The position numbers were made by a program. From Escherichia coli (lineage in GTDB: Bacteria > Pseudomonadota > Gammaproteobacteria > Enterobacterales > Enterobacteriaceae): a stretch of DNA of 64,000 nt. Of this stretch, positions 24,001 through 30,000 are shown in pieces (the stretch's first letter is position 1; each line of letters opens with the position of its first letter). The DNA lies in NCBI RefSeq assembly GCF_013315695.1, contig NZ_CP054353.1; one strand, written 5' to 3'.

Positions 24001-27000
24001 TGATGGGTTGGTGACCATAAAGAACCAGCTAAAGCTGTACTCCTGTACTCAGTATATACACGACGACTTAATTTCGTTTTCTCTATTTCATGCTCCACTC
24101 TTTTTACCGTTTCACTAACATCAGAAACATTTTCAATCACAAAACTCTTACGTTCATAAATAAGCCTGCTTAATGTATTTATATCTAAAAATTTCGCATC
24201 AAAAGAATCAATCTGTACTGTTTTTTCTTGTACTGACATCTTCTTTTCCTGGCTGGTATGGCAAGTGACGGAGACAAGAGAAACGTTTTAAGCTCAGTTA
24301 TCTCCGCCATCACTTTCCACGAATGACAAGTAATTTTGCCTATTTTAAAACCATGCAAAAGGCAGGGTAAAAGGAGAAAATTCGATCGAATCGATCGACA
24401 AAATCGATCATACATGATGAAGATTTTTTATCGAATCCATAAAAATAGTGACAGCTAACCGGCGTTGCAGGAACAGTCAGAAATGGGCGTTTGGGAAAGA
24501 GCCATAGCACTACGTCGTCGCTGACATAGAGGAACTGTGCTTTGTTGATAAGATCCTTTATACGGCAACCAATCCATTGGACAAAAGATGAACTACGTAA
24601 TCACCGGGTTCTCACTGACGAAATACAGAAGTTAATGACACAACTGTGCCATGTACCTTGTACAACAGCGGTGGAAAGCTCTCAGAACAATGGAATTGCA
24701 GAAAGGTGTTAAAACGATGAAAGCCTTCATACCCAAATCGAATGTAAGAACGGCAGTAAAGACTGAATTGCGTAACCTTGCAGTAGCTCGAGTATTACAC
24801 TGCATAGTGTGCAGGGTTATCTCCCATTGAGAAAATATCGGCGCCAGCGAATAACGTCACCTTAGATGTAGCAGTTGCCAAATAGTGACTCAAGGGCGGG
24901 CTTACCGCATACACTGACACTTAGCGGATCGACAGAATATTATTAGCAGATCATCACTGAACGCTACGTAATTATCGTAATAAAGGCTTTTTCTGGCTAC
25001 CAGGAAGACCTGACATGGCTCTGCTCTGGAACCAGGCCGCAGGAAGCATCAATCTGGAGTTTATCAGCTACTGGAATTCCGGTGTATTGGCAGCCCCTGA
25101 TAATCACCTGACCCACGAAGAGCGCTCTGCTTTGCAGAAACTCTGGGGCGGTTTGGAGACAGGAGATGCCATTTAACGATTATAGGACGTTCTGATAAAG
25201 CCCATGATTTTACCTCCGCCTTAATTAACTGTTTTCTTTCTGAAGAAAAAATTGTCTGGTGGCAATCAGGTGGCATTTTCCCGGATCCCTGGCCCGCTAA
25301 TATATCCCGGCTGAACAGACGATTAACGCGATATTGCAAATATGGCATCTGAATCGATCATGATTTGGCGGCATCCATCTCCGTTCACAGTTTGGCATGC
25401 TTCCGATCATTGATTGGCATCCAGCCAGTCACTCCGGGAATTAACTCTTTTCACCGCAGTCTCCATTGCCGTGTTTAAACCAATGGAGACGTCAATGTCC
25501 AAAAAGAGAATATCCAGGAGCACTATGGATACCTGTTTTAAGATCCTTCAGCTCAAGTTCGACCAGAAGCTGGCTAACCGTTGTATCGGACTTGCAAAAC
25601 ACCAATGGGGATTGATCTCTATTTTGCGACACAGACGCATTATCAATACATCGATGGTGCGATCAAATACCTCAGTGGTCTCACCGTGGATCAAATCCAG
25701 CAATTGCTCACAGATTAAGACTCGTCGGGAGTTTTGAGCCAACGCCAGCAGTAACCCATATTCACCTTGAGTGAAATCTACAGGCTGTTGATGAGCATCA
25801 ACCAGCACGTAACGGTCCGGGATCAAGTGTCCAGCCGTTAAAAAAACCACTCTACTACCCTGCTCGACCTAAGCCTCGGCGTTCAGCCGCCTGAACGGGT
25901 ATGGCAAGGGTGAAAAGAAACAGCATCCCCACAGTACCGACCAGACGACAGGATGATGCTGGAACAGAAAGCATTCGCACCTCCCTTAGAATTAGACAGT
26001 GCGTACAGGATACGTAAGACAGGGTGACGGGGCGGCGATAAACTCTATTTACAAAGCTGAAAATTTTCTGACGATGAAAAACTATTCAACAAGGTTATCT
26101 GAGGCGTTAAAATAACCAGCTCGATTAACGACTAACTTGAGGTGAATATGAATTTAAAAAATATAATTTTAAGTACTGTTTTATCAATCGCTAGTTGTCA
26201 TGCCTTGGCTGTAGGTAATTCTCAAATAGCGCTATCTAACCTTCATGTGGAAAACACCCCAAGTGGGACGAAGGCAATTGTGGGTTATGCTGAAAATAAA
26301 TCAAACTCTGTTGTCAAAAATGCTTATGTAAAATTTAATCTTTTAAAAGATGGAGTCGTTATCGGTCAAACAATCGACACAGCATCCAATCTTGAACCAG
26401 GCCAGAAGTGGAAAATACAAGCCTTCATTAACACCTTTAACGGCAGCCCTGACTCATTCAAAGTCACTGAAGTGAAAGTAGTTAACTGAGTGTGCCACTG
26501 ACTGCCGCTACAAAAATTATATGGAGGTCCTGGGAAAGGGCAGCTCTGCACCAGGCCGCCATAAAGGAATCAAATACTCTCGTTGTTTATGACACCGAAG
26601 AACTTTTATGTGAGATTACCCAGCGGCCCCGAGTTTCCCCTGAAGTCGGTGAGTTGCAGTTTCACCGTGCGGATCGCGTAGTGGACATTTCGCACAAGTC
26701 GAAAACCATATGAGAGCGTATGAAAATCACTCTCCTCGGCCCCATCGCCATCAGCATGGCCCGCTGAACAATACAATCCCGCAATGCAGGGCTCCCCAGT
26801 GGTCGCTGTTTGCTGTTGCTTTTAGGGATAGCAACATGTTCATGACCACCACGTTTATACCGGTGAGTCGGCTGCTGACAGCTGACCAACCCCAGCTCTT
26901 TCATGAGCCTGCCAGCAAACCAGCGTCCCATCTGGTAGCCTCTCCGGGTTGCCATTGTGGCGATGCTTCTTGCTCCGGCCGAACCGTGGCTGATGCCATG

Positions 27001-30000
27001 TAGCTCAAGTACCTGACTGTGTAATACAGCCCATCTGGTTTTTCAGGACGGTTTTTCCAGTATCTGTAGCTACTGCGATGAACCCTGAACACATGGCAGA
27101 GTGTGACCACCGGATAATGCGCTCTGAGTTTCCCGATTATCGGGAACTATTCAGGGAGTCTGATATCAAGAGCGCGGTAGCCTTTTTTAATATCGTATTT
27201 TGTTCCTCCAGACGACGCACCTGCTTTTCCAGCTCACGAATACGTTGCTGCTCTGATGTGAGTGGTACTGCAGAAGGCGTGATATCCTGACGTTCCCGTC
27301 TGAGCTGACATACCCATGCCTCCAGAGTAGAGAAACCAACATTCATAGCTTCAGTAGCTTCCCGGTATGAGTAACCTTTATCAACGATAAGTTGGGCGCA
27401 TTCCAGATTAAACTCAGGAGAGAAGGTACGCTTTGTTTTCTTGTTGTTTTATGTTGTGGTGAGAATATCACCTTTAATCAGGTGGCCAAATTTACTGTGC
27501 CACTACAACGCGATGGAGGAGAGCATCAATGGTCTTTACAAAACGGAGGTAATACACCGTAAGAGCTGGAAAAACCGGACAGAAGTGAAACTGGCCACAC
27601 TAACGTGGGTGGACTGGTATAACAATCGACGATTACTGAAAAGGCTGGGCCATATTCCTCCGACAGAAACAGAAAAAGCTTATTATGCCTCCATCGGAAA
27701 CAATGATCTGGCAGCCTGAGTTCACAGATAAAATACTCTCCAGGAAAACCGGGATGGTTCACCGGAGTGTTAAAGTGTGGCTTAAAATTATGCAGTTGCC
27801 GCCTGGCGGTCAAGACTGTCGCTACAGGATAAATCGCTCCGGTGAAACACAACTGCGCAAATCACCATACTGTGCATACGTATTACCGTGAAGGAGATCG
27901 GTGAGTTACGGGGTTATTGGGTGATCTCCTTCCATGAAAATACGCAGAGCACTTAAATCGCTGCTGGCGCGCACTAAAAACGTGTCAACCGGTTCCATTA
28001 GCGTAACATCAAAGCGAGTATTTAAGAAGCAGGAGAGCAACCTACAGGTTAACCCGAACCATATTAAATTCATAATCTTTTAACTGCTCAGACCCGATCA
28101 CCAGAAATCTGCCATTACCTGACTTAAATGATTTTGATAAAACAAGAGTGGTATCATATCTGGCTAAAACATAATACCACCCGTCATTATAATTCATCAT
28201 TTCATATTCTTTCTTGAATTGCGGCTTGTAAAAGCCAACAGAAAATGAAAAAACCCAGAAATATATGACAAAGCCGACAAAACATATTTCAGAAATATGT
28301 TTTTTTACAAAGATACTCTCTGAAAAACATGATGCTGAAACACGGTGGCCACAGGTTCTTATAAGAAAAACAAGAATAAGGGATACCGCTACTGATAAGG
28401 TAAGAAGTTTTAATGCCAGATGATTCTTTAGCACAGAGAACTCAATCACCACCGGAACAAACAATAAGAATGAGGCAAGAAAAAGTCTGAAAAAGCTCAA
28501 TTCATGCATGCTTGCTTTGTTTTTTATTCCAAGAAAGAAAAGTACTCCCGCGCCCCATGAGAGAAACAGGATGACCATTATAGTAATTGCATGAAACAGG
28601 CTTCTTGCAACATCGTCAATACCTGCACTGACAACCCACCATGGGAAACCATAATAAAAAGAGACACCCCACCCGTAAAAATATGCACTTCCCCATCCGA
28701 GACATCCCATATAAGCCACAAATAAGGAAGAATTTTTGAGCAACGCGTTGCTGTTCATTTTTACCCCTGTAAAACTGGAATAAGTAACAGAATAGCATTG
28801 ACATTGTCAAGATGAACAGCATGCATTGTAACAGTCTGCAGTTTATGTTCTCCGTGGATAATTATTCTTATTTCATGGTGATTTTTGTTATATTTTAAAA
28901 TGCATATCTCACCATTTAGTTTTTTATATCACAAAAACATAGTGATGCAATCATACACACCTGCCTCTATCGTACAGAGAAAACGGGCAATTATTTGTAT
29001 TATTCCTTCATAACGACTTCAGTATACAGGATGACCGCAACCACGCTCCTTCTCCTGCCCGGGCGAAGTGCCTGGTTCAGACAATTACATTAACTGGCTG
29101 AAATTTTCGACGCGGTACAGGCCTCCCTGCTTTGAAAGGTGGCCTGGCGCTGCAATTTTTTACTTTTGTTTTTGTATCCGGAAAAACACATCTGCAAGAA
29201 TCATTATTCTCTTGCCTGAAGCTATCCAGCATCCTCAGATATTTCGCACTTTATGAGCTGGCATCAGAAAAATGTGCCAGTAATTTTTTATTAATGACTT
29301 CAAACAGTTCCTGTTCATCATGGGTCAGATAATCCCAGATTTCTTTCAGATACATGCTTTGTGCAAGAGTGAGCCTCTGAATAAAAAACATACCTTCAGA
29401 TGTCAGACTGATTTTTTTAGCACGGCGATCCTCCCTGCTATCCGTCCTTTTTACATATCCGGCTTTTTCTAAAAAATCTGTAATGCGGGTAATATTAGTT
29501 CTGGTAAACTGAAGTTTCTGGCTTATCTCTGAAGGTGACAGACAATGGTTCTCCGCTGCGAATAATGTGGTGAGAACCATATATGCTGAGTGATTTATTC
29601 CATACGCCCCCAGAAATTCAGATATATTATCCTGCATTCTTTTATTTGTGCGAATACAGAGCTGCATCAACAAATGTTCCCGAAAGGGATATGCGGGGTC
29701 TTTGTTTTTTTGGTGTCTGATTATTTTTTCTAATGTGTCTGTGTTATTCATTTCATTATTCTCCATATTACTGAAACACACTGTCTGTGTACAAGCGCGC
29801 ATCAGTCATCCGGTAAACATCGACTTTCCACTACAATTTATTCCTACCTGATTTCTGTATGACAGAGTAGTCCCGACAGGCAGACGGATAAATTCCCGCA
29901 GATAAAAGAACATAAATGCTGGCTGCTGACAAGTCTGTGAAAAAGGATTATTGTAGTGGTTCACAAAATCAGGACACCGGAATAACCTGTTTCCACTTTT

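Follow-up and report, generated by a model that had tools for sequence, protein, structure and literature searches.

The interval 26615-27761 of a 64,000-nucleotide (nt) stretch of the Escherichia coli chromosome (contig NZ_CP054353.1; hereafter the window) is very probably a non-functional, multi-layered mobile-element scar within a tRNA-Phe-linked pap island, with the history reconstructed below. All four mobile elements in the scar are broken; they are a group II intron, of which a piece remains, and two or three insertion sequences (ISs). Features of this kind are already known. A sequence-only reading had placed two IS3-type fragments of two different elements here, abutting in opposite orientation after successive insertions and deletions. 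Such a succession of events is well supported and is documented by natural variants in other genomes, but the account was incomplete: four kinds of element are present (group II intron, ISEc31-like, IS911-like and IS629-like).

Composition of the scar

The pieces have the following identities, boundaries and orientations, with IS names taken from the product names given by the Prokaryotic Genome Annotation Pipeline (PGAP) in RefSeq records and from alignments to those copies.

26615-26829, minus strand: internal piece of a group II intron reverse-transcriptase/maturase gene (E.c.I4-like), codons ~89-163 of K-12 YkfC, with two frameshifts
26822-27193, minus strand: IS911-like segment, 95.3% nt identity to IS911, equivalent to IS911 nt ~319-696
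27194-27507, minus strand: ISEc31-like left terminal repeat, leader and orfA, with repeat tip TGTAGTGG at 27507
27505-27761, plus strand: IS629/IS1203-like 3' fragment, equivalent to IS nt ~1054-1310, with right repeat tip ...GGTTCA at 27761

The minus-strand fragment (26822-27507) is of IS3 type, as first read, with an HTH_Tnp_1 domain in its orfA (Pfam, E=6e-11) and 95% nt identity to IS911 over 26822-27193. Alignment with copies of IS911, ISEc52 and ISEc31 drawn from RefSeq genomes shows its affinity to flip sharply from ISEc31-like to IS911-like across a conserved frameshift window at ~27157-27196. The 5' part, 27194-27507, is 74-82% identical at the nt level to ISEc31 (about 76%) and only 56-69% identical to IS911, its left terminal repeat reaching 92-98% identity to ISEc31 in 40-nt windows. 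The adjoining 26822-27193 is 95.3% identical to IS911, 90.9% to ISEc52 and 55.6% to ISEc31, and identity to IS911 rises to 98-100% across the last ~200 nt (toward 26822). IS911 and ISEc31 are themselves ~57% identical across the same segments. The fragment is thus not IS911 as such, which it matches at 95.3% over nt 319-696 and at 56-69% over nt 1-315. Because the switch in affinity is so sharp, the sequence is best described as an ISEc31-like/IS911-like chimera of two IS3-family lineages, or else as a piece of an unnamed IS3-family lineage.

The IS911-like segment contains the end of orfA, the A6G frameshift window (slippery site) and ~125 codons of the orfB N-terminus, and the motif ATATTAAAAAAGGCTACC of its -1 frameshift window (orfA to orfB) is also conserved in IS911, ISEc52 and ISEc31. 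OrfA is 85-86% identical at the amino acid (aa) level to its best relatives, which lie on plasmids. The left repeat, TGTAGTGGCACAGTAAATTTGGCCACC..., starts with the 5'-TG of IS3-family repeats at its tip (27507) and can be aligned with those of ISEc31 and IS911; the right terminal repeat is absent. The sequence-only reading had described a truncated orfA plus the orfB N-terminus, of which the orfB part stands; orfA is not truncated at its 3' end and is nearly full length, having lost its ribosome-binding site and ATG to a 13-nt deletion. The frame of orfB is broken by a 7-nt deletion near 27030, and no rve hit, the DDE catalytic domain, was found in the minus-strand orfB, where homology ends at IS911 nt ~696, before that domain. 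Lacking a catalytic domain, the piece is a fragment of an IS3-family member rather than a functional member.

At the nt level the intron piece is 86-88% identical to K-12 ykfC and to plasmid-borne ltrA genes, and once its two frameshifts are corrected its translation shares 80% identity with K-12 YkfC over residues 89-163 (E=4e-36). Positions 1-60 of the RVT_1 profile match at E=0.002, under the Pfam cut-off, with one third of the domain present, and PGAP labels the same segment in strain 582 as a group II intron reverse-transcriptase pseudogene. Compared with K-12, the intron's 5' 926 nt and everything beyond codon ~163 are gone, leaving no maturase or endonuclease domain and ~75 codons of an open reading frame (ORF) of 381 aa in K-12 ykfC and ~500 aa in full-length ltrA. 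Rfam searches for ribozyme domains found no match to a group II intron, either within 26400-27900 at E values of up to 1 or across the whole window at the gathering score. Intron homology ends at ~26613-26615, and the FxLYD flank starts 15 nt further on.

Leclercq & Cordaux (2012, PMC3522654) report that E.c.I4 occupies defined sites within transposase genes of IS629, IS911, ISEc16 and ISEc31 and that pieces of it sit in large mobile elements; one such fragment, which we infer to be ykfC, is listed there for MG1655. An origin of the window's intron piece as a relic of an intron-bearing IS629-like element, as in pPA45B and MS 21-1, was considered and rejected: the intron and IS629-like pieces lie on opposite strands, and the intron is co-oriented with the IS911-like orfB.

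The plus-strand piece holds an open frame of the last ~70 orfB codons and the right terminal repeat, with an rve_3 domain (integrase-core C-terminus, E=1e-9). It aligns gap-free to IS1203 nt 1054-1310 at 93% identity and is ~95% identical to O157 IS629 copies, which places it at or below 95%, the usual threshold for IS isoforms. A longer relative lies elsewhere in the window.

41454-42763, minus strand: full-length IS629/IS1203-like element of 1310 bp, with both terminal repeats (from alignment to IS1203)

The plus-strand piece matches 41454-41710 of this copy as an inverted repeat of 257 nt with 93.0% identity and 18 differences (E=1e-108). With only 93% identity the two are relatives and not the same element. 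The full copy retains an intact ALIL frameshift pseudoknot (Rfam, 116 bits), and a CGA>TGA nonsense codon in its orfB drops the last 28 aa.

Several observations concern the surroundings of this full copy. Its intron homing site near 41977 (IS nt ~787) is unoccupied; a complete group II intron (ltrA) occupies the equivalent position in MS 21-1, where an ISEc31-like 5' fragment stands in place of the 5' side. About 8.6 kb of the window (~42.8-51.4 kb) are missing from the fetched 47-kb MS 21-1 stretch. Rfam matches to STnc490 (65 bits; 42926-43048, minus strand) and to AS-pc02, "antisense to pHK01_099" (56 bits; 41083-41261, plus strand), lie just outside its left and right repeats, respectively, and may be further IS- or plasmid-derived sequence filed as small RNA (sRNA) families.

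Junctions

The two IS pieces adjoin directly, as in the sequence-only reading, and their junction is exact, with the left-repeat tip intact. The left-repeat tip, ...CCACTACA, the reverse complement of TGTAGTGG, ends at 27507, and the joint reads ...GTGCCACTACA followed directly by ACGCGATGG... At this joint 3-4 nt (ACA/ACAA) are common to the repeat tip and the IS629-like sequence, ACAA occupying 27505-27508.

The IS911-like segment meets the intron at an 8-bp microhomology, ATCCCTAA, present in both partners. The corresponding IS911A of K-12 extends 65 nt past the end of IS911 in the window and is then followed by the intron, with ykfC downstream, so that the window is 991 nt shorter than K-12 across the exon-intron boundary. 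A gap of 991 nt with its joint in ATCCCTAA is the signature of a microhomology-mediated deletion. A 97-aa ORF ending at 26662 runs from IS911 OrfB codons straight into reverse-transcriptase codons.

Natural variants in other genomes

Among 5,426 complete E. coli genomes, ~57 have the junction between the IS pieces; ~21 of these show the window's contiguous form and ~36 carry 170 extra nt. Intermediate arrangements exist in these and related genomes:

Type A, second locus of SCU-101: FxLYD flank, intron remnant, IS remnant and left-repeat tip, joined to IS629-like nt 886-1302 and then sfaX
Type B, UPEC 26-1 and ~35 others: the same tip, followed by IS629-like nt 886-1310 and then 27762 onward, with window 26044-27074 deleted
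Type C, this window and ~20 others: tip joined to IS629-like nt ~1056-1310
Type D, KC-Dl-1 and at least 2 others: the same block and tip, here adjoining unrelated pgtP-side DNA

EcPF14 matched similarly to the type A locus of SCU-101 and may share its arrangement. Types A and C have an identical truncated left part. At 6100-6125 in KC-Dl-1, where the left-repeat tip meets pgtP-side DNA, there is a direct repeat of the form CCACTACA-A-CCACTACA; the repeated 8-mer might have arisen by slippage, or it might mark the tip of a second IS3-family end.

Further insertions have struck the same region, with an IS21 insertion at ~26812 in strain 582, an IS3-family insertion at ~26934 in WP7-S17-ESBL-01 and relatives, and a truncated ISEc12 (left repeat) directly after 26599 in the common MS 85-1-type island. 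A single inversion converting the window's locus into the MS 85-1-type locus was rejected on the grounds that the predicted flanks do not match, and no ISEc12 target duplication was found across 26599 and 27946. The junction variants (IS629-like nt 886 versus ~1056, and the extra IS21, IS3-family and ISEc12 insertions) could mark lineages of pap-island subtypes.

Probable history

The arrangement in the window and its variants suggest the following order of events. An IS629-like element would first have lain next to the DNA that now starts at 27762. A second IS3-family element, with an ISEc31-like left end and orfA and an IS911-like orfB, would then have landed between nt 885 and 886, within the orfB of the IS629-like element and in reverse orientation to it, and its left-repeat tip still sits exactly on IS629-like sequence. 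This inserted element would have borne an E.c.I4-type intron at the orfB homing site, at about IS911 nt 761, comparable to IS911A/ykfC in K-12.

Two breaks would subsequently have removed most of the nested structure. A ~1-kb (991 bp) deletion at ATCCCTAA would have fused IS911 nt ~696 to reverse-transcriptase codon ~89, and a second break at about codon 163 would have joined the intron remnant to the FxLYD flank. The second break would have taken with it the remaining intron sequence, the catalytic half of the IS together with its right end, and nt 1-885 of the IS629-like element. Small lesions probably followed, namely the 13-nt loss at the start of orfA, the 7-nt loss in orfB and the frameshifts in the reverse-transcriptase gene. 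Finally, IS629-like nt 886-~1055 would have been lost in the window's lineage through a deletion of 170 bp, flush with the left-repeat tip and bounded by two ACAA copies, one of them overlapping that tip.

An unlikely alternative for the changes flush with the tip, the 170-bp loss and the KC-Dl-1 joint, is that a transposase acted on the left end by IS-mediated adjacent deletion or intramolecular transposition. Tip-flush joints are a hallmark of adjacent deletion driven from an IS end, and two or three different sequences, notably that of type D, are joined exactly at this repeat tip. However, the truncated left part, with the same joint of IS911 and intron remnants, is common to forms that differ at the tip, which implies that the element had already lost its catalytic domain and right end before the tip-flush events. 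In particular, the left part shared by types A and C indicates that the IS was already dead before the 170-bp loss in the window lineage, and for this reason a microhomology deletion is favoured over a transposase-driven one at that step. The 4-nt ACAA repeat that brackets the 170-bp deletion likewise argues against transposase action, as does the preference of IS3-family transposases for acting in cis.

Several points weigh against the layered history as a whole. The chimeric IS has no known full-length representative among the genomes searched: two junction patterns spanning the switch from ISEc31-like to IS911-like sequence (one exact, one degenerate) gave 0 hits in 100,044 species-representative genomes, a search requiring exact matches with one genome per species, and no plasmid or other E. 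coli site covered at least 80% of it. The chimera may represent a former mobile lineage, or it may have formed on site when two elements recombined. In none of the genomes in the collections is a complete inserted IS followed by the missing half of the IS629-like element, so that the simple-insertion step has the exact repeat-tip junction as its sole witness. Extant sequences do not prove the order of the second insertion, the intron's arrival and the large deletions, and the model does not explain the KC-Dl-1-type joint to pgtP-side DNA in detail. The intron piece is also more than 10% diverged from the E.c.I4-type copies examined and may belong to another named intron.

Possible residual activity of the scar

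The interval is inert. It contains no intact ORF, transposase or reverse transcriptase, and each IS piece has one end; with no intact enzyme and only single ends, nothing in the scar can move, and the one role it might plausibly retain is that of a homology patch in recombination. There is a slight chance that the debris is not fully inert, acting either through an IsrC-like, Hfq-binding sRNA made in uropathogenic E. coli or through a RecA-dependent 13.7-kb pap inversion via the IS629-like pair.

For the second of these, a 13.7-kb pap segment is bracketed by the inverted IS629-like sequences 27505-27761 and 41454-41710, the right ends of both facing inward. The bracketed segment resembles composite-transposon-like remains and is a possible inversion substrate; the longest exact match between the two inverted repeats is ~34 nt, counted by eye in the alignment.

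For the first, it is highly doubtful that 27330-27452 (minus strand), made up of ISEc31-like leader and the 5' region of orfA, has been co-opted and is expressed as an IsrC-like sRNA. The Rfam model isrC (RF01387) matches this region over its full length, model positions 1-123, at 97.4 bits against a gathering threshold of 39, and in Salmonella IsrC is expressed from an island as an sRNA, with induction in macrophages (PMC2330248). But the match amounts to plain sequence homology to the start of an IS3-family orfA, with many non-canonical predicted pairs; a scan of the scar for promoters and terminators gave nothing above shuffled expectation, so that neither a sigma-70-like promoter nor a terminator was found, and the region carries decay lesions. 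The isrC family consensus reads as an ISEc31-type orfA start (UUAAUGAACAAGAAAACC...), which suggests that the family may itself derive from an IS3-family remnant. The differently defined K-12 isrC (b4435) was tried as a source of the Rfam match and shows no similarity.

Two fragments or one element

It is very improbable that two IS3-type fragments filling 26662-27762, with the plus-strand one a piece of the complete element at 41454-42773, are the whole account. There are indeed two IS3-family pieces in opposite orientation, but 26615-26829 is intron reverse-transcriptase sequence, the minus-strand piece is split into ISEc31-like and IS911-like parts, and the plus-strand piece is just 93% identical to the full copy. 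The left boundary at 26662 was accordingly off by ~160 nt, being the stop of the fusion ORF described above. The label "IS629/IS911-like" for the minus-strand fragment holds as IS911-like for 26822-27193 and fails for IS629, which belongs to the plus-strand piece, and for the ISEc31-like 5' part. The supposed complete copy of the same element is instead a 93% identical relative of 1310 bp on the minus strand, at 41454-42763, with a nonsense codon in orfB.

A single contiguous, differently organised element holding both fragments has a negligible probability: the pieces abut without a spacer and co-occur in ~57 genomes, but they lie on opposite strands and terminate at canonical repeat tips that belong to two separate reference ISs, the left-repeat tip of the minus-strand piece is joined in other genomes to IS629-like nt 886 and in KC-Dl-1 to pgtP-side DNA, and there is no intact transposase.

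Setting in the island

The four-element scar lies in a tRNA-Phe-linked pathogenicity island of extraintestinal (urinary-tract) E. coli that occupies the window from ~16.6 kb onward and includes a tyrosine integrase and a pap (P fimbriae) operon; this region is near-identical to strain MS 21-1 and to further human extraintestinal isolates. Its immediate neighbours and its annotation in MS 21-1, where PGAP represents it as two pseudogenes, one per IS piece, are as follows.

26142-26489, plus strand: FxLYD-domain gene, left neighbour of the scar
26600-26614, no strand assigned: 15 nt (GAACTTTTATGTGAG) between the FxLYD-gene flank and the intron fragment
26788-27471, minus strand: PGAP pseudogene "transposase" (MS 21-1)
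27507-27719, plus strand: PGAP pseudogene "integrase core domain-containing protein" (MS 21-1)
28042-28758, minus strand: 238-aa hypothetical ORF, right neighbour of the scar, followed by papX

Alignment with the MS 85-1-type locus stops at 26599, and further island variants diverge right after the same position. The gap between the FxLYD gene and papX or sfaX has evidently served as a dumping ground for mobile elements.

The present analysis corrects the annotation in that the "transposase" pseudogene call includes an unannotated group II intron fragment and its IS fragment is chimeric. The practical value is small, and the scar is ordinary genomic debris that raises no open biological question; as a mosaic between virulence operons it offers a worked example of nested insertions followed by microhomology-flanked deletions.

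Other elements near the scar

A sequence of ~68 nt at 27879-27946 contains a 10-bp perfect inverted repeat (GAAGGAGATC/GATCTCCTTC), and its right half, 27913-27946, matches the terminal 34 nt of the ISEc12 (IS21 family) left end in MS 85-1 at 94% identity when read in inverted orientation. Similar unannotated sequences of ~65 nt occur in ~2,770 of the 5,426 E. coli genomes, and the window's copy may be a solo or miniature IS21-family end.

An IS1 copy lies at 32331-33099 in the window; MS 21-1 has no IS1 there, and ~195 nt of MS 21-1 papF sequence beside the site are missing from the window, which suggests that an IS1 insertion with adjacent deletion disrupts papF. The IS1 that MS 21-1 carries near hemW is absent from the window (junction near 1846-1854). 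A further IS3-family element at ~29968-31133 (minus strand), between papX and papG, has no DNA-level relation to the scar pieces and is annotated by PGAP in MS 21-1 with a programmed frameshift and an internal stop.

Comparison with known systems

The scar's closest known counterparts are the reference elements and one decayed locus in K-12. IS911 (IS3 family, IS3 group) resembles the minus-strand fragment over nt 319-696, including the A6G slippery site and the orfB N-terminus, and differs from it in the repeat, leader and orfA body (56-69%); the DDE domain and right repeat of IS911 are missing from the fragment. ISEc31 (IS3 family) is nearly identical in the outer ~45 nt of the left repeat and collinear in orfA, whereas overall identities of only 74-82% (nt) and 85% (aa), and of 55.6% in the orfB part, make the fragment an unnamed relative rather than ISEc31 itself. 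The plus-strand piece corresponds to the last ~255 nt of IS629/IS1203, including the right repeat and the C-terminal integrase-core codons, at 93-95% nt identity, and is a fragment only.

The intron remnant shares with E.c.I4 its reverse-transcriptase homology, its site directly downstream of a co-oriented IS911-type orfB and its location in a large mobile element, but is 12-14% diverged at the nt level and has no ribozyme, maturase or endonuclease domains. In the IS911A/ykfC locus of K-12 (cryptic prophage CP4-6), an IS911-type orfB is likewise followed by a co-oriented E.c.I4-type reverse-transcriptase gene, and both loci are decayed and lie in a horizontally acquired island. The K-12 locus retains the natural exon-intron junction (IS911 nt ~761) and the 5' ribozyme part of the intron, whereas the window does not; the window keeps ~215 nt of the reverse-transcriptase gene, 86% identical to ykfC, and the 5' third of its IS is ISEc31-like rather than IS911-like.

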